Below are positions 3,698-56,687 of a stretch of DNA of 64,000 nucleotides, piece after piece; position 1 is the first letter of the stretch, and each line of letters starts with the position of its first letter. A program made the translations under genes and the position numbers. Source of the DNA: Vulcanimicrobiota bacterium (GTDB lineage: Bacteria > Vulcanimicrobiota > Vulcanimicrobiia > Eremiobacterales > Eremiobacteraceae); contig CAWDVP010000002.1 in NCBI GenBank assembly GCA_963805945.1, forward strand, positions 320,001 to 384,000, in the 5' to 3' direction. Below the pieces are notes generated by a model. It saw only the letters and a list, made by a program, of their open reading frames with translations, did not search any database and was not told the DNA's origin.

Positions 3698-4464
3698 ATG
3701 GCGACACGTTCGAAACCCCTGATCTGCAGCATCGGATCGACAGACCCGACCGCCGCCGCCGGCATCGGTCGCGACCTCATCGTCTACGAGCGACTCGGGG
3801 CGGTCGGGGTCTTCGCGGTCGCCGCCATCACGGCGCAGAACGCGCACGGCGTCTCGGCGTCGACGCCGTCGCGCCGCGCGTCTCGCGGCGCAGCTCAAAG
3901 CGGTCTGGCAACAGCATACGCCGAAGTCATCCGCATCGGCCTGCTCCCCGACGCGAAGCTGATCGCCGTGGTCGCCGCTTCGTGCGTTCGCTGCGCAAGC
4001 GACCGCCAATCGTGATCGATCCGGTGCTGTGCGCGAGTTCGGGCGCACGCTTTCTCGGTGCCGCGGAAGTGCGGGCGCTTGAGCGCTTGCTGCCGCTGGC
4101 GACCCTCGTCACGCCGAACGTCGCCGAAGCCGAGAAGCTCACCGGCCTGCGCATCCGCGACCTCGCGAGCGCCGAGCGCGCGGCCGTACGGCTGCACGAG
4201 CGCGGCTGCGCGGTGCTGCTCACGGGCGGTCACCTGCCTGGCGCGCGCGTCACCGATATCCTCGTCGATCACAGCGGACTGCGGCGCTTCAGCGCGCCGC
4301 GCATCGAGGCGCGCATGCGCGGCACCGGCTGCACGCTCGCCGCAGCGATCGCGGTCTTTCTCGCACAAGAGCTGCCGCTCGAGCAGGCGGTGTCGCGCGC
4401 CCGCAGCTTCGTACGGCGCGAACTGGAGGCGCAGCGCCGCGCGCGGCCAAAGGGACGCGCATGA
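3698..4464 (+). CDS. thiD: Hydroxymethylpyrimidine/phosphomethylpyrimidine kinase, frameshifted
   Basis: SIGSTDPTAAAGIGRDL, AITAQN, IVIDPV, LVTPNVAEAEKL, RGTGCTLAAAIA across ORFs 3698-4015 and 3982-4464. Confidence 0.9.
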
Positions 4465-5454: not shown

Positions 5455-6530
5455 GTGCGCGGACGATCATCGCTGACTTCTCGTCGTGCTGACCTGCGTG
5501 GCGGCGGCGATGCTCGCGCCTTCAGGCACGCTCGCGGCCGGCGACCCGCGGGTCCAGATCAGCACGCCGCGAGACGGCCAGCAGTTCGAACCGGGCAGAT
5601 CGTGTCGGTGACCGTGACCGTTTCCGTGCCGGTGGGTGCTGGATTCCTCGGCGTCGGCGCTCCAGGCGTGGGAGTGCTGCAGGGCGTCGGCTATAATGGA
5701 TCCAGCTATCAGGCGCACTTCACGATCCCCGCAGAGTTCGCAGGCCCGCTCACGATGACGCCGTCGGTGATCACAACGGACGGCACGCCGATCGAAGGCA
5801 CGTCGGTGACTATCATCGTGCGAGCGGCCGGTCCGCCGTCGCGTCTGCGCCTGGTGGAGGCGACGTTCTTCTTGCGGCCATCGGCGTCCATGGAGAACAT
5901 CTACGTCCAGGGCGTATATCCGAACGGCATCGAGCGCGACCTGACGTCGTCCGTCACCGGGAACGACCTACCGATCGAGCGACCCGCAGGTCGTCAAGGT
6001 CGATGCGGAAGGAGCATGTCCGCGCCGTGGGCTGGGGCGCCGCGGTGGTGATCGTCAAGAACGGCGGTGCCAAAGCGTTCGCGACGGTGTGGGTCGAGGA
6101 CCCGGCCCAGCCGCTGCCGCCGGTCGACGTCACCGATCAACTCAGGGTCGAGCGTGTGCCGGCGCAGGTCACGGCCGTGGACCCGTCCGAGAGCGGCTAC
6201 GTCCAGACGCTGCGCATCAGCAATGCGAGCTCGATACCGATCCCAGGACGGCTCTATGTCGTGGTCTCAGACCTTCCGCCGAAGGCGGTCGTGACGGAAG
6301 CCGGCAGGACCAAACACGTCGAGCCGCTTGGGTCGCTGTACTTCTGGACCAGATTGCCGGACGGCCTCACGCTCCAGCCGGGCCAGAGCGCATCCGTCAG
6401 CCTGCACATGTATACGCTGACGAACACGCCCGTCGACTACACCGTGCGCGTCTTCCGCAGCTCGGTCGAGCCAGTGAGGGCTCGCTTGAGCGGCTCTGGT
6501 ACTTCGCGAGCACCGTCTTCAGGCGCGTGA
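5455..6530 (+). CDS. Secreted beta-rich/Ig-like domain protein, frameshifted
   Basis: Beta-strand-rich segments GQIVSVTVTVSVP, VQGVYPNGIERDLTSSVTG, VQTLRISNASSIPIPG, LQPGQSASVSL; ORFs 5455-6051 and 6003-6530. Confidence 0.5.
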
Positions 6531-6599
6531 GCGCTTCGTGCAGAAGCGGGCCTGGTACTTCGCAAGCACCGTCTTGAGCCGCTTGAGCGCCTCGCGCAG
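6496..6599. repeat. 48-bp imperfect direct repeat of the aminotransferase 3' end
   Basis: 6496-6543 and 6552-6599 encode LHEALTRLKTVLAKYQ and LREALKRLKTVLAKYQ on the minus strand. Confidence 0.8.
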
Positions 6600-7730
6600 G
6601 TTCTCTTCTGAATTCGCGTACGACAGCCGGATGAAGCCTTTGCCGTTCGGCCCGAACGTCGAGCCGCCGAGCACCGCGACGTTGCCTTCATCCAAGATGT
6701 AGGCGGCGAGTTTGATGTCGTCTTTCTCGATCGCCGACATGTTCGGGAACACGTAGAACGCGCCGCCCGGCATCTGGCAGGTCACGCCCGGGATCTCGTT
6801 GAGCCCCTTCACCAACAGCTCGCGGCGGCGCCGGAACTCTTCCTCCATGCGCTGCACCGGCCGGTCGTCGCAGTGGAGCGCCTTGACGCCCGCGTCCTGG
6901 ACGAAGGTCGCGGTGCATGAGACGGTGTTGAGCATGAGCGCGCCGACCGCGTCGGCGATGTACTTCGGATACACGCCGAAGCCCAGCCGCCAGCCCGTCA
7001 TCGCCCACGCCTTGGAGAATCCGTCGACCAAGATGGTGCGCTCCGGCATGCCCGCCAGCCCGTAGTACGAGGCGAAATCCGCGTCATAGCAGTGGCGGTT
7101 GTAGATCTCGTCCGTGATCACAAGGATGTCGTGCTTGCGCGAGATCGCGGCGATGCCTTCGATGTCCTCAGGCGTGAGGATGCCGCCGGTGGGATTGTGC
7201 GGCGAGTTGATCACCAAGATCTTCGTCTTGGGCGTCACCGCGGCTTCGAGCGTGTCGAGGTCGAGGCGGAACGCTTTCTTCTCGAGCAGCGGCACCGACA
7301 CGGGAACCGCGCCGACGTAGGTCACGATCGAACGGTACGCCGGATAGGCCGGATCGGGGATGATGACCTCATCGCCCGGATTGAGCAGCGCCATCAGCGT
7401 GAAGGCGATGGTCGGCTTCGCGCCTGGGCTCACCACCACCATGTCGCGCGTCACCTCGACGCCGCGCGTCCGCTTGACGTACTCCACGATCGCGTCGCGC
7501 AGTTCGGCGATGCCCGAGGCCGGCGTGTAGTGGGTGCGGTTTTCGCGGATCGAGGCGATGCCGGCTTCTTTGATGTCTTCGGGCGTGTCGAAGTCCGGCT
7601 CGCCGATCTCCAGATGGATGATGTTGCGCCCTTGCGCCTCGAGCGCTCTGGCCCGCGCGAGCACCACGAAGGCGCTCTCGGTGCCCAAACGGCTCATCGA
7701 AGCGGCGAGCGGGAATTGCGTCGTCTGCAT
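6519..7730 (-). CDS. PLP-dependent aminotransferase class I/II (aspartate aminotransferase-like)
   Basis: GEPDFDTP, NSPHNPTG, DEIY, FSKAWAMTGWRLG, GAFYVFPN. Confidence 0.95.
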   Translation of the reverse strand: MQTTQFPLAASMSRLGTESAFVVLARARALEAQGRNIIHLEIGEPDFDTPEDIKEAGIASIRENRTHYTPASGIAELRDAIVEYVKRTRGVEVTRDMVVVSPGAKPTIAFTLMALLNPGDEVIIPDPAYPAYRSIVTYVGAVPVSVPLLEKKAFRLDLDTLEAAVTPKTKILVINSPHNPTGGILTPEDIEGIAAISRKHDILVITDEIYNRHCYDADFASYYGLAGMPERTILVDGFSKAWAMTGWRLGFGVYPKYIADAVGALMLNTVSCTATFVQDAGVKALHCDDRPVQRMEEEFRRRRELLVKGLNEIPGVTCQMPGGAFYVFPNMSAIEKDDIKLAAYILDEGNVAVLGGSTFGPNGKGFIRLSYANSEENLREALKRLKTVLAKYQARFCTKRSRA

Positions 7731-21307: not shown

Positions 21308-21607
21308 ATGCACACCATCGCCGCCATCATGTGGTTCTTCGATGACAGCAGCAACGCGATGAACGCCGCCGCAGTGGGCGGGTTCATGGCAGCGTACGGC
21401 CTCTTCGTCCTCATCCTCGTCGCCTTCGAGATCTTCCTCATGTGGAAGATCGCGACGAAGGCGGGCTATCCAGGCGCCTATAGCCTGTTGATGCTGATAC
21501 CGCTCGTCAACATCATCATCTTCATCATGTTCGCCTTCACCGAATGGCCGATCGAGCGCGACCTCAAGGCGCTGCGCGGCACCCGGGGCACAACGCTCAC
21601 ATCCTGA
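21308..21607 (+). CDS. Small membrane protein (DUF805-like)
   Basis: SD AGGAGG; WKIATKAGYPGAYSLLMLIPLVNII..FAFTEWP. Confidence 0.75.
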   Translation: MHTIAAIMWFFDDSSNAMNAAAVGGFMAAYGLFVLILVAFEIFLMWKIATKAGYPGAYSLLMLIPLVNIIIFIMFAFTEWPIERDLKALRGTRGTTLTS

Positions 21608-21645
21608 TCGCGGCAGACGGCCGCTCGAAGTCCACACACAGCACA

Positions 21646-21672
21646 CGAGCCCGCGCATATGCGCGGGCTCGT
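21646..21672. terminator. Hairpin between convergent genes
   Basis: Palindrome CGAGCCCGCGCATATGCGCGGGCTCG followed by TCCTCTTCT. Confidence 0.7.
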
Positions 21673-21700
21673 CCTCTTCTATAGTGCAAGCGCGGCGGAG

Positions 21701-22282
21701 CTACGTGTGCGCGTGCGCCTGGTGGCGCTTGCGGTAGTTGCGCGCCTTGGTCCGATTGCCGCACGTGCTCATGGTGCACCACTGGCCCGAGCGGTTCTTC
21801 GTCTCGTCGAAAAACGCCCACGAGCAGCGATCAGCCGGACATGCTTTGAGCCGGCTCCACGTGCCGCTAGCCATCGCTGCGAAGGCGATCGCCAGGAGCG
21901 TACCGAGCGCGCCATCGACGCCTGGTGCGAGCGGTTCAAGACGCGCGCCGCCATCCGCTTCGAAGCGGGCGGCCAGCTGCGCGCTGCGCGCCGCTCGATT
22001 GAGGGTTTCACGCGCGTTAGGATCCGCAGCAGCGCCGTTGTTGGCGAGGGTGAGATCGCGCAACGCCTCGCGCACGGCGGTCGCCTGCCGCACGTCTGAG
22101 TCCGTCGCCGCCGCGCCACGCTTGAGCAGCCCCGCATCCACAAGCCAGCGCGTCAAGCCGGCCGGGGTCGCGAGGTCGTCGCGGCCGCTCTCCAACTCCG
22201 CGGTATTGATGAAGGCCTGCGGCAGCAGCAGGTCGCCCGGGGCGGGCTTGCTGCCGGCATACTTGAGAAGAAAGTCTTTCAT
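21701..22282 (-). CDS. CGNR zinc-finger/ABATE domain protein, putative transcriptional regulator
   Basis: AFINT, RLKACPADRCSWAFFDETKNRSGQWCTMSTCGNRTK. Confidence 0.92.
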   Translation of the reverse strand: MKDFLLKYAGSKPAPGDLLLPQAFINTAELESGRDDLATPAGLTRWLVDAGLLKRGAAATDSDVRQATAVREALRDLTLANNGAAADPNARETLNRAARSAQLAARFEADGGARLEPLAPGVDGALGTLLAIAFAAMASGTWSRLKACPADRCSWAFFDETKNRSGQWCTMSTCGNRTKARNYRKRHQAHAHT

Positions 22283-22290
22283 TGCGGCCC

Positions 22291-22320
22291 ATTATACGCA
22301 CTTCGGAGGTTACTTTTCAA
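22291..22320 (-). promoter_or_regulatory. Sigma70 promoter of the CGNR gene, probably leaderless
   Basis: TTGAAA-18-TATAAT; ATG lies 8 nt after the -10; no SD. Confidence 0.7.
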
Positions 22321-22349
22321 GCCTGCTATCCCGTAAAGTGGTACATAGT

Positions 22350-22408
22350 GTAACTATTTAACTGCATTGACAGGTTACGATAACTAGCGTAGAATGATGG
22401 CAGGTTAC
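22350..22408 (+). promoter_or_regulatory. Sigma70 promoter overlapped by two tandem TAAC-N19-GTTA operators
   Basis: TTGACA (22367-72)-17-TAGAAT (22390-95); operators GTAACTA...CAGGTTAC 22350-22378 and ATAACTA...CAGGTTAC 22380-22408. Confidence 0.8.
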
Positions 22409-22431
22409 CTCCCACACGAAAGGACACGACC

Positions 22432-22566
22432 ATGGTACATCAAGCTTCGCGCCTCTTCGGGCTCACTCTGGACGAGTACGAGCTGCCGGGCTCGCGCACG
22501 GATCTCGTCAGCATCCCGCGCGGCGCCTCGAGCTCGATCTTCGGCGGCTGGGGAGTCCGGATCTAA
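22432..22566 (+). CDS. Unannotated 44-aa small protein, SIFxGWG family copy A
   Basis: SD GAAAGGA; MVHQASRLFGLTLDEYELPGSRTDLVSIPRGASSSIFGGWGVRI*; paralog at 23777-23920. Confidence 0.8.
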   Translation: MVHQASRLFGLTLDEYELPGSRTDLVSIPRGASSSIFGGWGVRI

Positions 22567-22639
22567 CGGTGGCGCCGTTAAGAGCCGTTAACCTCAGCCG
22601 ACAAGGTCACCGCACGATAACTCCGCCAACAGCGCAGCC

Positions 22640-23563
22640 ATGAACAACAGGATGTTCGTGGCTGCCTTGTCTGTCATCGCGCTCGCGTTGTCAGGTCAGT
22701 CGGCGGCGTCGCCGACCGGCGACCCGGTGATCGCCGCCGCCGGCGACATCGCCTGTGACCCCCGCCCGAGCGCCGCGCCTGAAGCCGATGAGGGCGGCGG
22801 CAGCGTCTGTCACCAGGCGGCGACCGCAAAACTCATCGAGCTCATGCACCCGGCCGCCGTTCTGGCGCTCGGCGACGAACAGTATCCCAACGGCGCGCTC
22901 GATTCGTTCACGGCGGGCTATGCGCCGTCGTGGGGCGCCTTCAAAGCGATCACGCATCCGGCGCCGGGCAACCACGAGTATCACACCCCGGGCGCGGCCG
23001 GATATTTCACGTACTTCGGCGCAGCGGCCGGCCCGCCGGACAAGGGCTACTACAGTTTCGATGTCGGCGGCTGGCACCTCATCGCCCTCAACGCCAACTG
23101 CCAGCCCGCCGGCGGCTGTGGAGCGGATTCGCCGGAGGTGCGCTGGCTCGCGCAGGATCTCGCGGCGCACAAGGGCGCCTGTACGCTCGCCTACTGGCAT
23201 CAGCCGCGCTGGTCATCCGGACCGCACCACAGCGATCCCACGTATGACGCGTTCTGGCAGACGTTGTACGCCGCGCATGCGGACGTCGTGCTCGGCGGAC
23301 ACGACCATGACTACGAACGCTTTTCGCCACAGGCGCCCGACGGCGCGTCGGATCCGGGCAAGGGCATCACAGAATTCGTCGTCGGCACGGGCGGGCGCAG
23401 CCACTATCAGGTCAAGAGCGTCGCACCCAACAGCGAGGCGCGCAGCAACGATACTTTCGGCGTGCTCGAACTCACTTTGCATGCGCACGGCTTCGATTGG
23501 CGATTCGTGCCTGAGCAGGGCAGCACGTTCACCGATTCAGGCAGCCGCGCGTGCCATGCCTAG
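22640..23563 (+). CDS. Secreted calcineurin-like metallophosphoesterase
   Basis: Signal peptide; AAGDIA, LGDEQY, PGNHEY, YWHQP, GHDHDYER, VGTGG. Confidence 0.92.
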   Translation: MNNRMFVAALSVIALALSGQSAASPTGDPVIAAAGDIACDPRPSAAPEADEGGGSVCHQAATAKLIELMHPAAVLALGDEQYPNGALDSFTAGYAPSWGAFKAITHPAPGNHEYHTPGAAGYFTYFGAAAGPPDKGYYSFDVGGWHLIALNANCQPAGGCGADSPEVRWLAQDLAAHKGACTLAYWHQPRWSSGPHHSDPTYDAFWQTLYAAHADVVLGGHDHDYERFSPQAPDGASDPGKGITEFVVGTGGRSHYQVKSVAPNSEARSNDTFGVLELTLHAHGFDWRFVPEQGSTFTDSGSRACHA

Positions 23564-23776
23564 GTAGCTGAACCTCCAGCCCCGTTTCTGTCCCGCGACC
23601 CCCTCGTGAGCCGCTGGGAACAGGCACGCGGGCCGATTCTCCGTGCCGGGCGGCGCTAACTCCCCGTAGCTGTACCGATTCGACCCCACCCCCTGTGGCC
23701 GTACCATGGACTCAAGCGAAGGCCGGGCGAAAACGCCAGGCCTCGCACACGCGAACTGAAAGGACGTGACCACGCC

Positions 23777-23920
23777 ATGGACGCTAAGAAGAAGAACGAC
23801 TACATGATCGACGACGAGGAAGATCAAGAGAACGGCCTGCTCGACACGCACTCCACGCTGGTGCGGCTGCGCAGGGGCCCCGACACCTCGATCTTCAGAG
23901 GCTGGGGACCGAAGCTCTAA
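23777..23920 (+). CDS. Unannotated 47-aa small protein, SIFxGWG family copy B
   Basis: SD GAAAGGA; MDAKKKNDYMIDDEEDQENGLLDTHSTLVRLRRGPDTSIFRGWGPKL*; followed by a terminator. Confidence 0.8.
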   Translation: MDAKKKNDYMIDDEEDQENGLLDTHSTLVRLRRGPDTSIFRGWGPKL

Positions 23921-23931
23921 TGCGGCCCCGC

Positions 23932-23969
23932 AAGAAGAGGGCGCCTGGCTAAGGCGCCCTTTCTTTCTT
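23932..23969. terminator. Bidirectional Rho-independent terminator
   Basis: AAGAAG-AGGGCGCCT-GGCTA-AGGCGCCCT-TTCTTTCTT between convergent ORFs. Confidence 0.8.
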
Positions 23970-23983
23970 GGAGCGGTCGAATC

Positions 23984-24253
23984 TTACGAGCTGGTTCTGC
24001 TCCCGGTGAGCATGCGCACGATGAGCAGCAAGACCACCGCGCCGATAAAGGCGACGACGATGCTGCCGAGGTTGATCCCGGTGACGCCCGCATGACCGAA
24101 CCAATTGAAGATCCAACCGCCGAGGATGCCGCCGATCACGCCGACGATGAGATCGCCCATGAGGCCGCCGGGGCCCTCGCCCTTGACCACCATTTTGCCG
24201 AGCCAACCGCCGATGATGCCGACGACCGCCCATATGAGGAGGTTTTCTAGCAC
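23984..24253 (-). CDS. GlsB/YeaQ/YmgE family stress-response membrane protein
   Basis: WAVVGIIGGWLGK..G.G.GGL.GDLIVGVIGG..GGW; SD AAAGGAG; paralog at 56424. Confidence 0.9.
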   Translation of the reverse strand: MLENLLIWAVVGIIGGWLGKMVVKGEGPGGLMGDLIVGVIGGILGGWIFNWFGHAGVTGINLGSIVVAFIGAVVLLLIVRMLTGSRTSS

Positions 24254-24335
24254 TTCGATCTCCTTTCAGGATAGCGAAGCATATGTACCCTCACTTGCCC
24301 TATGCCGCGGGCGTGCTCCTGGTGCGCCCGAGACA

Positions 24336-24372
24336 ATAAAGAAGGGGCGTCGCACGGATGCGGCACCCCTCA
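24336..24372 (-). terminator. Terminator downstream of the Lys-rich micro-ORF
   Basis: Minus strand GAGGGGTGCCGCA-TCCG-TGCGACGCCCCTT-CTTTATT. Confidence 0.75.
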
Positions 24373-24400
24373 AAAGCGGAACAACGCTTACGTTATAGCG

Positions 24401-24451
24401 TTAGTGCTTTTTCTTCTTGGTCGCTTTCTTCTTGGCTTTCTTCTTGGCCAT
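24401..24451 (-). CDS. 16-aa lysine-rich micro-protein MAKKKAKKKATKKKKH
   Basis: Strong SD GGAGGTGA upstream of ATG 24451; TAA stop; downstream terminator. Confidence 0.7.
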   Translation of the reverse strand: MAKKKAKKKATKKKKH

Positions 24452-24689
24452 GGTGTGCAGGTCACCTCCATTTCGATTTTCCGGCGCTCGTGGGGCGTTG
24501 CTGTACGCCGCTTGTCTGATTCGGTTTTTCCATCCGCCGGTGCGGAGCCGTGCGGTGTGTACGCGATGCCGAAGAATACGGGGTCATCCACTGGCCCACA
24601 CGCCACACTTGTGTGTGCGCGTGACGTTCCCCTTTCGCCGTCGCGCGTCGGGCAGGAACCTCGCGCGGACGCAAACCATACTCTTCTCT

Positions 24690-36482: not shown

Positions 36483-37087
36483 CGTCCGCGGACGGCGGCG
36501 CGGGGACGAGCCGCATGCGCCGCAGCGCCGCATTCGTGGATCGCGACGGCACGCTCAACGTCGACACCGGCTATCTCAAGACGCCCGATGAGGTCGTGCT
36601 GATCCCCGGCGCCGCCGCGGGCGTCCGCGCGCTCGCGCACGCGGGCTTCGCGGTCGTGGTGGTGTCGAATCAATCCGGCATCGGGCGCGGCTACCTCACG
36701 GAGGCCGACGCCGATCGGGTCGACGCGCGCGTGCGCGAACTGCTCGCGCGCGAAGGCGCGCCGCTCACCGCCATGTACCGCTGCCCTCATCTGCCGGACG
36801 CCGGTTGTGACTGCCGCAAACCGAAGCCGGGCATGCTGACGCGCGCGGCGGCCGAACTCGGTCTCGACCTGCGCGCGTCGTGGATGATCGGCGACAAGGC
36901 GGCTGACATGGCCGCGGGCCGTGCCGCCGGCTGCCGCTGCGTGAGCGTGCCCGGCGCGCCGGCGCATCAGCCGCCGGAAGATCTTTCGGCCGCCCCGCCG
37001 GAGTATCGCGCGGCCGATCTGGCGGACGCCGCGCGCTTCGTCATCGCGCATGCAGGCGCGGTGCGGCCGGCGGAGAGCGCGCGATGA
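36479..37087 (+). CDS. gmhB: Heptose-1,7-bisphosphate phosphatase
   Basis: [33 protein letters not shown]. Confidence 0.93.
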
Positions 37088-38168
37088 GCCGCGCGCAACC
37101 GGCGTGGGTCGCAGACCTGTTGCGCGCCATGCGCGGCAAACGCATCGTGGTGGCCGGCGATATCATGCTCGACGAATGGCTGTGGGGCAGCGTGCGCCGC
37201 ATCTCGCCCGAGGCGCCGGTGCCCGTCGTCGAGGTCAGCTCGCAATCGTTCACCCTGGGCGGCGCCGCGAACGTCGCCAACAACCTCGCGGCGCTCGGCG
37301 CGAAGGTCCGCTTGATCGGCGTCGTGGGCGACTGACGAAGCGGGCGCCCGCACGCTCGAGCTGTGCCGCCTGCTCGACATCGACACGTCGGGCGTGGCGG
37401 TCGCCGCCGCGCGGCCCACGACACAAAAGACGCGCATCGTGGCGCATAACCAGCAGGTCGTGCGCGCCGACCGAGAGGTGACCGGAGAGCTCGACGCGCG
37501 GACGAAAGCGCGGCTCGTGAAGAGCCTGCGCGCGCTGGACGGCGCGATCGACGGCGCGATCGTCTCCGACTACAGCAAGGGGTTGGTGCGCGCGCCGATC
37601 GTCCAGGCGCTCACCGGCCACGCGCGGCGATGCGTCATCACCGGCGATCCGAAGCCCGACAACATCGCGGCCTTCGCGGGCGTGGATTGCATCGCGCCGA
37701 ACGCCGCGGAGGCGGCGAGCGCGGCGGGCATGCCGCTGCTGACGCGACGCGGATCTGTCGCGCGTCGCGAGCCGGCTGCGCGCGCTCGCGCATTGCCGCT
37801 CCGTGCTCATCACGCGCGGTGAATACGGCATGACGCTGTTCTCCGACGAGGTGCGCCGTTCACCGTGCCGGCAGTCGCGCGCCAGGTCTATGACGTCAGC
37901 GGCGCCGGCGACACGGTCATCTCCGCGCTGACGCTCGCGCTCGCAGCCGGAGCGCCGATCCGCCATGCGGTCACTCTGGCGTCGCTGGCGGCGGGCGTAG
38001 TGGTGGAGAAGCTCGGCACGGCGACCGCGACGCCGCGCGAGATCTTGCATTTCGCGGAGCGCGAAGGGGTCGCGCATCCGACCCGTTTCGTCGCCGCGCG
38101 CGCGGCGAGCCGCGCCGCGCCGCACGCGAGCCAAGAAAACTGGGAAAGCCCGTGCGCGCCGCCGCTAA
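37084..38168 (+). CDS. rfaE1: Heptose-7-phosphate kinase (HldE N-domain/RfaE1), frameshifted
   Basis: [40 protein letters not shown]; end approximate. Confidence 0.88.
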
Positions 38169-38641
38169 GATGCTGCCGCGCGAGGAGATCGCGCGCCGCC
38201 TGCCCGCGTTGCGCGAGGTGCGCGGTCCGGTCGTCTTCACCAACGGCGTGTTCGATCTGCTGCACGTCGGCCACGTGCGCTATCTCGAGTTCGCGCGCAG
38301 CCTCGGCGGCGTGCTCGTGGTCGGCGTCAACTCCGACAGCTCGGTGCGCGCGCTCGGACAAAGCGCCCGGCCGGCCGGTGGTGCCGGAGACCGAGCGCGC
38401 GGAGCTCGTAGCGGCGCTCGAAAGCGTCGACTACGTGTGCATCTTCTATGAGACGCGGCCGGACGACACGCTGCGCATCATCAGACCCGACATCCACGTG
38501 AAGAGCTCGAGCTACGCGATCGCCGATCTGCCCGAAGCGCAGACCGTCGCCGAGATCGGCGCCAGCATCGTGCTCGCGCCGCACATCGAAGGACGTTCGA
38601 CCACAGACCTCATCCGCCGCATCGCGGAGAGCCGCGAGTGA
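38152..38641 (+). CDS. rfaE2: Heptose-1-phosphate adenylyltransferase (RfaE2), frameshifted
   Basis: [34 protein letters not shown]. Confidence 0.9.
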
Positions 38642-50787: not shown

Positions 50788-51861
50788 TTAGCGCAGCGCC
50801 CGGACGAGATCCGGAGGCGCGATGACGTAGACGGTGCCGTTCGAGCCCGCCAGCCACGCATGCGCGAACTGCGCGCGCTTGTAGACGCGGCGGATCGCGC
50901 CCGGTTCGCCATAAGGATCGTTGACGATGACGTCGCCCGACGGCGTGAAGCCGCGGATGACGAGCAGATGACCGGCGGTCTTCGGATACGGGGCTCCATC
51001 GAGTTCGTGCGGCTGCACGGCGATGGACGCGATAACCGGGATGCCGCGCGACACGAGCAGCGCGACGTCGTCGAGCGATGGGAACTGGCGCACGAATCCC
51101 GCGAGACCGTGCTCCGAGACGAAGGCGACGTTGAACGGCCAGTTGCCGCACCCGTCGTACACCGGATCGTACACGCCGTCGGCGACCGCCGCGACGTCCA
51201 CGTCCCATTGCGGATGGCCGGTCGAGCGCGCCCAGTACGCCATCACCATCGAGACGCTCGTCGGACTGCACCACGAGTCGCCGCCGCCGCCTTTCGCGTC
51301 CGACGACGTCGCGATGCGCTGCGTCCGCTCCGGCACGGGCAGCTCGCGCGCCGCGCCGGCGGGTGCGCGGCCATCCGTGACGCCGTCCGGCGCCAGCGAC
51401 GTGGCGACCGCGAGCAGCCGCAGCGCGGGCGGTCGTCCATCGGCGCCCGCGATCGGCGTCGCGCGCACGGCGAAGGCGTCCGCGGCATGGGTGAGCGTGA
51501 GCGTGTCGGTGTCGACGTCACCGTCCGCGTCCCTCTGGCCTGCGGTCGAACGGCGTTCGCTCGCGACCGTAGCGCTCCACAGGCCCATCGAATACCACTT
51601 CGTCCAACGGCCGCCGACGCGGGCGCGCAGATCGATCGCGAGCGCCGAACCGCCGCTCGTGCTCACGTTCCACGAGACGACCACAGCGGTGAAGCCGCCG
51701 GCGACCTCGGTCACGGCCGTCTCGAGCGGCAATGCCGGCGCGCGCTCGTACTGCTCGATCCACACGCGGTCGTTCGGGTCGGGGCCGGACGGTGATGCCG
51801 CGCTCACGAGCGCGCTCGCCAGCGCGACGCAGCCGAGACCGGCATGCTTCAGATTTCCCAT
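50788..51861 (-). CDS. Peptidase C39-like family protein, secreted
   Basis: ERTQR..WCSPTSVSMV, GNWPFN, PVIAS, GHLLVIRGF, VIVNDP. Confidence 0.85.
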   Translation of the reverse strand: MGNLKHAGLGCVALASALVSAASPSGPDPNDRVWIEQYERAPALPLETAVTEVAGGFTAVVVSWNVSTSGGSALAIDLRARVGGRWTKWYSMGLWSATVASERRSTAGQRDADGDVDTDTLTLTHAADAFAVRATPIAGADGRPPALRLLAVATSLAPDGVTDGRAPAGAARELPVPERTQRIATSSDAKGGGGDSWCSPTSVSMVMAYWARSTGHPQWDVDVAAVADGVYDPVYDGCGNWPFNVAFVSEHGLAGFVRQFPSLDDVALLVSRGIPVIASIAVQPHELDGAPYPKTAGHLLVIRGFTPSGDVIVNDPYGEPGAIRRVYKRAQFAHAWLAGSNGTVYVIAPPDLVRALR

Positions 51862-56423: not shown

Positions 56424-56687
56424 TCAGGTCGTGACGCGTCGACCCGTGAGCGCTCGGACGATGAGCAGCAAGACCACGCTGCCGACGAACGCCACCAGAA
56501 TGCTCCAGATGTTGAGTCCCGTCGCGCCCGAGTGGCCGAAGTAGTTGAAGAGCCAGCCGCCGACGATAGCGCCGATGACGCCGACGATCAGGTCGCCGAG
56601 CACGCCGCCAGGGCCTTCGCCCGGGACGACGTTCTTGGCGAGGAAACCGGCGACGATGCCGACGATGATCCAGGCAAGAATATCCAT
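56424..56687 (-). CDS. GlsB/YeaQ/YmgE family stress-response membrane protein
   Basis: MDILAWIIVGIVAGFLAK..PGEGPGG..GDLIVGVIGA; SD AAGGAG. Confidence 0.92.
   Translation of the reverse strand: MDILAWIIVGIVAGFLAKNVVPGEGPGGVLGDLIVGVIGAIVGGWLFNYFGHSGATGLNIWSILVAFVGSVVLLLIVRALTGRRVTT

Follow-up and report, generated by a model that had tools for sequence, protein, structure and literature searches.

The question raised by this locus is what two very short genes, ending in closely similar sequences and placed on either side of a gene for a secreted metallophosphoesterase, contribute to the cell that carries them. Both lie in a stretch of 64,000 nucleotides from a Vulcanimicrobiota bacterium (contig CAWDVP010000002.1, positions 320,001 to 384,000), which in its full length is referred to here as the window. 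An initial annotation, made from the letters alone, had described the two open reading frames (ORFs), designated ORF A and ORF B, as paralogous, conserved members of a family not yet described, and all three parts of that description are borne out below; the coordinates and translations given for them were correct. For comparison, two reference-genome loci of 16 kb each were used, both from records of Candidatus Eremiobacteraeota metagenome-assembled genomes and designated L001 and L002. They came from one scan of reference genomes with the B-specific peptide pattern DTSIFRGW, which is not a measure of distribution. The features at the centre of the analysis are as follows.

22432..22566, forward strand: ORF A, a 44-residue micro-protein of the A clade with the tail GWGVRI, matched by the family hidden Markov model (HMM) at E 4e-18.
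22418..22424, forward strand: the Shine-Dalgarno (SD) sequence GAAAGGA of ORF A, of which GAAAGG is kept in L001 and L002.
23777..23920, forward strand: ORF B, a 47-residue micro-protein of the B clade with an acidic N terminus and the tail GWGPKL.

ORF A and ORF B are genuine coding genes and paralogues of each other. Their C-terminal 20 residues align without gaps, as had been noted, with 10 of 20 positions identical (BLASTP E 9e-7 in a single comparison), and a six-frame regular-expression scan of the 64-kb window finds the motif [ST]IFxGWG in these two ORFs only. The start codons of both are conserved across the window, L001, and L002, where the orthologues of ORF A (L001 6725-6856, L002 6695-6832) lie ~1.2 kb upstream of those of ORF B (L001 8001-8141, L002 7992-8132). 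The SD sequence ascribed to both ORFs is present, that of ORF B at positions 23758-23764 and with GAAAGG likewise conserved; the spacing to the ATG is 7 nt for ORF A and 12 nt for ORF B. The GC content at third codon positions (GC3), correctly described as high, is 0.84 for ORF A and 0.87 for ORF B, compared with 0.81-0.82 for the adjoining genes (0.82 for the phosphoesterase), 0.60 and 0.73 for the alternative frames that overlap the two ORFs, and an overall GC content of 68.5% in the window. Across the three genomes, the ratio of nonsynonymous to synonymous substitution rates (dN/dS), a check that the initial annotation had proposed, is 0.08-0.13 for ORF B and 0.12-0.47 for ORF A over the last 30 codons, with dS among the genomes at ~0.6-1.4 and hence near saturation. 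At the protein level ORF B is 77-78% identical between genomes, the same as FabF (77-78%); L27 and Obg are at 86-87%, the phosphoesterase at 71%, the CGNR regulator encoded next to ORF A at 66%, and ORF A at 54-59%. Although both ORFs are short and spurious ORFs are common in high-GC DNA, the reading of them as random, non-coding open frames is refuted, and retains a negligible probability, because dN/dS is far under 1 despite saturated synonymous sites, GC3 matches that of real genes, the SDs are conserved, and 191 related clusters have a conserved stop.

The two ORFs belong to a family with two clades. A search of the kind suggested in the initial annotation, with the family HMM against the six-frame translations of the window, L001, and L002 (2126 segments), gave exactly six matches (E 1e-20 to 8e-18): every locus has a single A and a single B, and the next-best match had an E value of 1.5. 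The simplest reading, resting on these three loci, is that each genome has two ancient paralogues. A profile search started from the two ORFs gave 19 proteins of 44-47 residues, a count that includes ORF B of the window; 18 are B-like and one is A-like (93% identity). Among 1.84 billion representative proteins, a profile search gave 35 matches at E <= 1e-3, of which 32 are proteins of 39-59 residues with the same tail. The remaining three are long (P0029, P0030, and P0043), and P0030 and P0043 proved on inspection to be repetitive sequence; with two of the three long matches so inspected, the family is, as far as its sequences indicate, without fused or domain-embedded forms. A wider word-indexed search gave 191 clusters at E <= 0.01, which is a minimum size for the family, and organism names were drawn from 120 of these. 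All seven named matches among those listed are from Eremiobacterota (Vulcanimicrobiota in the NCBI taxonomy), namely five from Candidatus Eremiobacteraceae, one from Candidatus Eremiobacteraeota, and one from Candidatus Tumulicola; by these seven, the family has so far been seen in one bacterial phylum only, where it spans two orders of the NCBI taxonomy. Plasmids and phages gave no match at E <= 1 in tblastn searches with ORF B and the A-clade member P0057.

The anatomy of the family was read from 136 sequences, with position counts on 135 and positions numbered back from the C terminus. Each member, most commonly 45 residues long, comprises a variable N-terminal part and a conserved C-terminal module with the consensus L-x3-R-[TS]-x-L-V-R-x-[PR]-x-G-x-D-[ST]-[ST]-[LI]-F-[GR]-G-W-G-[VIP]-[RK]-[IL]-stop. 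The protein ends three residues past GWG in 135 of the 136 members, the exception being P0051, so that motif and stop are kept together. Phe-8, Gly-6, Trp-5, and Gly-4 are invariant (135/135). Further upstream, Arg-23 is present in 126 of 135 members, Thr or Ser at -22 in 132 (Thr in 79 and Ser in 53), Leu-20 in 127, Val-19 in 131, Gly-14 in 115, and Asp-12 in 114. At -7, Gly occurs in 105 members, whereas 21, ORF B among them, have Arg. The last three residues follow the pattern [VIP][RK][IL]: VRI in 63 members, VKI in 23, PKL in 18, IKI in 10, PKI in 8, and others. Because the family-wide conservation reaches Leu-27, the module comprises ~27 residues rather than 20, and the statement that the N-terminal regions of ORF A and ORF B are unrelated does not hold, since in the family alignments the match runs ~10 residues further upstream than had been described.

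Average-linkage clustering of 128 members gave 73 A-like sequences, 52 B-like sequences, and three singletons, and a quick maximum-likelihood tree reproduced the A/B split with 74 versus 54 rows (Shimodaira-Hasegawa-like approximate likelihood ratio test, 94). The A-like group has mostly the tail VRI, Pro at -16, and a mean net charge of -0.4 in the N-terminal part; the B-like group has tails of the type P/I-K-L/I and a mean N-terminal net charge of -5.0. The description of both N termini as acidic is thus correct for the B-like group and wrong for the A-like group.

At the sequence level the family is new, in that nothing described matches it; what had been called unannotated is undescribed as a family, although some homologues have been deposited under the name "hypothetical protein". 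ORF A and ORF B match no Pfam or NCBIfam family at E <= 1, and in single scans of 128 members no Pfam or NCBIfam family was matched by more than one member (best E values 0.095 and 0.089, respectively). PADLOC gave no match to the family, PHROGs a single match at E 0.17, a profile search of PDB sequences chance matches to KaiC only (E ~1), and the ESM Atlas no usable match for either ORF. In the published literature, the string FGGWG appears, among the papers listed and by their titles and the opening parts of abstracts, in unrelated contexts (streptococcal bacteriocins and llama antibodies); six tail strings of the family were not found, and titles on small proteins of Eremiobacterota include nothing related. 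A relation to AbrB/MazE, suggested by a likeness of the LVR[VIL]P strand, found no support: none of 128 members matches the Pfam family SpoVT_AbrB, even at E <= 10.

AlphaFold2 models based on a 128-row alignment have a mean predicted local distance difference test score of 56.2 and a predicted template modelling score of 0.13 for ORF A, and of 63.2 and 0.18 for ORF B. Each contains a single helical turn, at [ST]IF, and the models indicate that both proteins are most likely disordered until a partner is met. No transmembrane or hydrophobic segment and no signal peptide was found in either; the highest 15-residue hydropathy is 0.74 for ORF A and -0.19 for ORF B.

The two genes are part of a small syntenic block, and the other features of this block, together with the control signals within it, are as follows.

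21308..21607, forward strand: a conserved 99-residue membrane protein with a weak DUF805 match, the leftmost member of the syntenic block.
21701..22282, reverse strand: a 193-residue regulator with ABATE and CGNR zinc-finger domains (PF07336 at 2.4e-16, PF11706 at 8.7e-18).
22291..22320, reverse strand: the divergent sigma-70-like promoter of the CGNR gene, TTGAAA-18 nt-TATAAT, by sequence match.
22307-22313, 22372-22378, and 22402-22408, forward strand: three copies of AGGTTAC, candidate CGNR operators and the only copies in the window.
22367..22395, forward strand: the sigma-70-like promoter of ORF A, TTGACA-17 nt-TAGAAT, with 11 of 12 matches and both blocks kept in L001 and L002.
22576..22591, forward strand: two direct repeats of CGTTAA 10 bp apart, directly past the ORF A stop and kept in L001 and L002.
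22640..23563, forward strand: a secreted calcineurin-like metallophosphoesterase of 307 residues, related to purple acid phosphatases, with a signal peptide read from the sequence.
23634..23776, forward strand: a conserved non-coding region upstream of ORF B that includes its SD, with blocks invariant in three genomes at dS ~1.
23936..23972, forward strand: an intrinsic-terminator-like hairpin (23936-23962) with a T-rich tail, with equivalents in L001 and L002.

The genomic context rests on the three orthologous loci. The conserved order in the block is membrane protein (+), ABATE/CGNR regulator (-), ORF A (+), phosphoesterase (+), and ORF B (+), and the part from the CGNR gene through ORF A and the phosphoesterase to ORF B is present in both L001 and L002 (CGNR orthologue at L002 5904-6563, phosphoesterase orthologue at L001 6922-7863). 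In L001 the CGNR gene appears divided between two ORFs, 6112-6603 and 5967-6254, that overlap in different frames, which reflects either a frameshift or an assembly indel. The flanks of the block differ: on the left, a CreD-like protein in the window versus an unrelated protein in L001 and L002, and on the right, a Transgly_assoc gene versus a Cys/Met pyridoxal phosphate enzyme. The Transgly_assoc gene, which adjoins ORF B (23984-24253), is one of two paralogues in the window for small membrane proteins of the GlsB/YeaQ type, the other being at 56427-56687. Between the convergent genes for the membrane protein and the CGNR regulator is a perfect 12-bp GC-rich palindromic hairpin (21645-21672) that is probably a bidirectional terminator and that accounts for two sub-threshold matches to the Rfam family Leu_leader. 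The outer neighbourhood consists of housekeeping genes (L27, Obg, NadD, MreBC, PBP2, FabF, RNase III, and SMC). Neighbour functions were assigned by a Pfam scan of 51 window proteins, with 13 short or doubtful window ORFs left out, and 9 locus proteins. Some genes elsewhere in the window are apparently split into adjacent pieces (3698-4461 and 37084-38641): a phosphomethylpyrimidine kinase is found in two ORFs that cover profile positions 1-81 and 86-235, and a PfkB kinase is likewise in separate pieces. These are either frameshifts or assembly indels.

The 100-bp intergenic region between the CGNR gene and ORF A contains all three copies of AGGTTAC in the window, where 0.63 would be expected in 64 kb. 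The copies overlap both divergent promoters, that at 22372 abutting the -35 box, and the first two sites are kept as GGTTA[CT] in L001 and L002. The confinement of AGGTTAC to this region and the conservation of two of its copies support the initial suggestion that ORF A is a target of the CGNR regulator; control through binding to these putative operators is plausible from the distribution of the motif. In PMC2954205 the ligand of the ABATE domain is described as unknown, and a role in signal-dependent regulation is proposed for the protein. The literature on CGNR and ABATE yielded a 2009 structure paper and incidental mentions only. B-clade proteins and CGNR orthologues both occur on contigs of 5931, 14237, 9549, and 94480 bp, and these equal sizes, which fall short of proof, suggest linkage of the CGNR gene and ORF B in at least four further assemblies.

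ORF B appears as a stand-alone gene, because the terminator-like hairpin lies directly downstream and is followed by convergent genes. The hairpin that the initial annotation placed at or after the stop of each ORF is real for ORF B; in ORF A there is a 5-bp hairpin over the stop that is not kept in L001 or L002. Upstream of ORF B the ~140-nt conserved region contains several GTACC-containing blocks and one TACCAT box; the block CCGTACC is about as frequent in the window as expected (4 copies versus 3.8). Rfam at E <= 1 over positions 21500-24500 gave nothing in the leaders of ORF A or ORF B, and in RNAalifold with three sequences the ORF A region and the region upstream of ORF B had too few informative pairs for a claim of structure. 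The sequence TAATGCGGCCC, which extends across the ORF B stop (23918-23930), is invariant in the three genomes, and an ATG within it overlaps the stop. Because the short frames downstream vary in length, they are probably not coding.

We tentatively favor, at low confidence and below even odds, the reading that ORF A and ORF B encode a pair of docking micro-proteins that act in trans, A being gated by the CGNR regulator and B being of housekeeping type; a docking or inhibitor peptide was among the suggestions of the initial annotation. The C-terminal module with its free C terminus would dock onto one conserved cellular partner, folding upon binding, and the N-terminal part, strongly acidic in B and neutral in A, would determine the effect. 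B would be a stand-alone gene of housekeeping grade, controlled from its own upstream region and closed by its own terminator. A would be driven by a strong promoter, gated at the AGGTTAC sites by the divergent ABATE/CGNR regulator, and made only under the inducing condition of that regulator, probably together with the secreted phosphoesterase; it could then compete with B on the common partner or displace it. This reading is preferred because the module is strictly conserved in both clades, because ORF B stands alone and is constrained at a housekeeping level (its identity equals that of FabF), because the monomers are predicted to be disordered, and because there are no fused forms or adjacent enzymes. 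The C terminus, fixed across the family, fits recognition of a free end. What the analysis shows directly is that both ORFs are coding, that they belong to a conserved family, that the block is syntenic, and that the proteins are predicted to be disordered; from these we infer the action in trans, the shared partner, the control by CGNR, and the competition between A and B.

Several points weigh against a docking pair. The partner and the binding to it are hypothetical, and the competition between A and B is conjecture. The phosphoesterase, whose gene is the one in conserved synteny with the pair, has a signal peptide, so that once folded it would not meet a cytoplasmic peptide. The arrangement of ORF A and the phosphoesterase gene, which are 73 nt apart with no SD and a masked ATG for the latter, also fits a leader acting in cis. 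The context, including the position of A beside a CGNR gene, is that of the three orthologous loci. CGNR homologues with 55-60% identity are found in Thermoleophilaceae and Gaiellaceae, from which no family match is named, and the regulator can therefore do without the micro-protein.

The main alternative, which concerns ORF A only and which we consider unlikely, is that of a leader or ribosome-arrest peptide acting in cis: translation of the ORF A module to its fixed stop would control the phosphoesterase, through opening of the hairpin over its start codon or through attenuation. In all three loci ORF A is upstream of the phosphoesterase gene on the same strand, and in the window, L001, and L002 the latter gene has no SD. 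Its ATG is inside a stable hairpin in the window (22634-22665, -27.2 kcal/mol, z -3.75) and in L002 (~6877-6936, -36 kcal/mol, z -5.3), and L001 has a GC hairpin and a T run just within the coding sequence (~6943-6972); the start hairpin may serve in translational masking or attenuation. The spacer contains conserved blocks, and the CGTTAA repeats directly past the ORF A stop are two of the three copies in the window. Arrest and leader peptides of the SecM, TnaC, and SpeFL type come from short ORFs whose C-terminal stretch is conserved over about the length of the exit tunnel and has a fixed end, which the ~27-residue conserved stretch and fixed stop of the family resemble, and ORF A shares with them its position directly upstream of a gene with a structurally masked start. 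However, ORF B has the same module and stands alone, followed by its own terminator and convergent genes, and the module therefore cannot be specific to a leader. In addition, a ribosome terminating at the ORF A stop would halt ~49 nt short of the hairpin base, a distance that excludes direct melting, and the fold in L001 is not significant (z -1.6). The strong SDs on both genes and the conservation of B at the level of a housekeeping enzyme such as FabF are more typical of a functional product; the family differs further from arrest peptides in having two ancient clades.

It is rather improbable that the peptides are precursors or scaffolds of ribosomally synthesized and post-translationally modified peptides (RiPPs), with the module or the variable N-terminal part modified by enzymes encoded elsewhere. 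They are small and predicted to be disordered, with a variable region beside an invariant one and a fixed end, and in this they resemble the RiPP or cofactor precursors PqqA and MftA, whose C-terminal core is invariant. Precursors of lasso peptides have Asp or Glu at core positions 7-9, Thr at the penultimate position of the leader, and an adjacent cyclase and leader protease; the family has a superficial likeness to them in the Thr or Ser two residues before Leu-20 (132/135) and in the Asp that would be at core position 9 (114/135). In contrast to all of these, the family genes are outside any biosynthetic cluster, in a housekeeping neighbourhood and, for ORF B, with conservation like that of FabF. 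As the initial annotation had stated, no modifying enzyme is found among the 51 window proteins scanned, nor in the two 16-kb loci: radical S-adenosylmethionine, YcaO, ATP-grasp, lasso cyclase, PqqD-like, and LanM-like proteins are absent from the 51 window and 9 locus proteins, as are Asn-synthase-like and transglutaminase-like proteins. A lasso precursor as such was rejected: 21 of 135 members lack the ring acid, as does ORF A among them, whose last 20 residues contain no acidic one, and neither cyclase nor protease is nearby. Double-glycine leaders have a Gly-Gly cleavage site and a nearby C39 ATP-binding cassette (ABC) transporter. A leader of this kind, processed by C39, was also rejected: 21 of 135 members, including ORF B, have Arg-Gly in place of Gly-Gly, and there is no adjacent C39 transporter. 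The sole Peptidase_C39_2 protein in the window (50791-51861) is 27 kb away and has no ABC domain.

A related proposal, to which we would give about one chance in ten, is that of a phylum-specific scaffold or tag pair, in which the invariant F-G-G-W-G tail and fixed C terminus would be substrates for processing or conjugation by remote enzymes. If so, it would represent a new RiPP, cofactor, or protein-tagging chemistry around a Gly-flanked Trp, with B as a housekeeping isoform and A as a stress-gated isoform under ABATE/CGNR control. The more specific suggestion of a Pup-like tag was not upheld. Pup and UBact are, like the family, small disordered proteins with a conserved C-terminal part and an exact C terminus that matters, and they end in GGQ or GGE and are encoded near ligase, deamidase, or proteasome genes. 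The family, in contrast, ends in [VIP][RK][IL], with no GGQ or GGE and no tail ending in Gln or Glu, shows no similarity to any Pfam or NCBIfam model, and has no ligase, deamidase, or proteasome gene among the scanned window and locus proteins.

A role of the C-terminal module as an anchor that tethers the variable N-terminal part peripherally to a membrane or to the surface is very doubtful. Phe, Trp, a basic residue, and a terminal Ile or Leu are present in 135 of 136 tails, by analogy to C-terminal membrane-targeting sequences, and the absence of a transmembrane segment or signal peptide from ORF A and ORF B is compatible with such a role. The strict F-x-G-W-G and the conserved residues 20 positions upstream nevertheless exceed what lipid binding normally needs, and no helix is predicted for the Gly-rich tail.

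Least favored among the functional roles, and highly improbable, is that ORF A encodes a ligand or anti-repressor of the divergent ABATE/CGNR regulator, in a feedback loop with a small antagonist. In the window and in L002 the two genes point away from each other, the regulator gene of L001 being read in two pieces. CGNR orthologues and B-clade proteins probably share contigs, and the ABATE ligand is described as unknown (PMC2954205). The module is, however, common to ORF B, a gene without a dedicated regulator, and the CGNR homologues in Thermoleophilaceae and Gaiellaceae again occur where no family match is named. Co-folding of the CGNR protein (44-row alignment) with ORF A (128-row) gave a score of 0.00 against a mark of 0.32, a run without controls that counts neither way. 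Antagonists of the SinI/SinR type are similar in being small ORFs beside a transcription regulator that probably controls them; they have no sequence or domain relation to the family, and the regulator at this locus belongs to the ABATE/CGNR class, for which no ligand is known.

With the docking reading as the preferred proposal for mechanism, the novelty concerns the family itself, for which no known family or system passed a test of membership. For the ABATE/CGNR class of regulators, of which neither targets nor binding sites are known, the locus also supplies a candidate operator, AGGTTAC, with its target operon. Eremiobacterota (WPS-2), a phylum with hardly any cultured members, abound in soils and cold deserts. 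In this phylum ORF B is conserved like FabF, it has a regulated paralogue, the family extends over at least two orders, and it corresponds to no described family, which together point to an unrecognized and probably important lineage-specific cellular interaction or chemistry.

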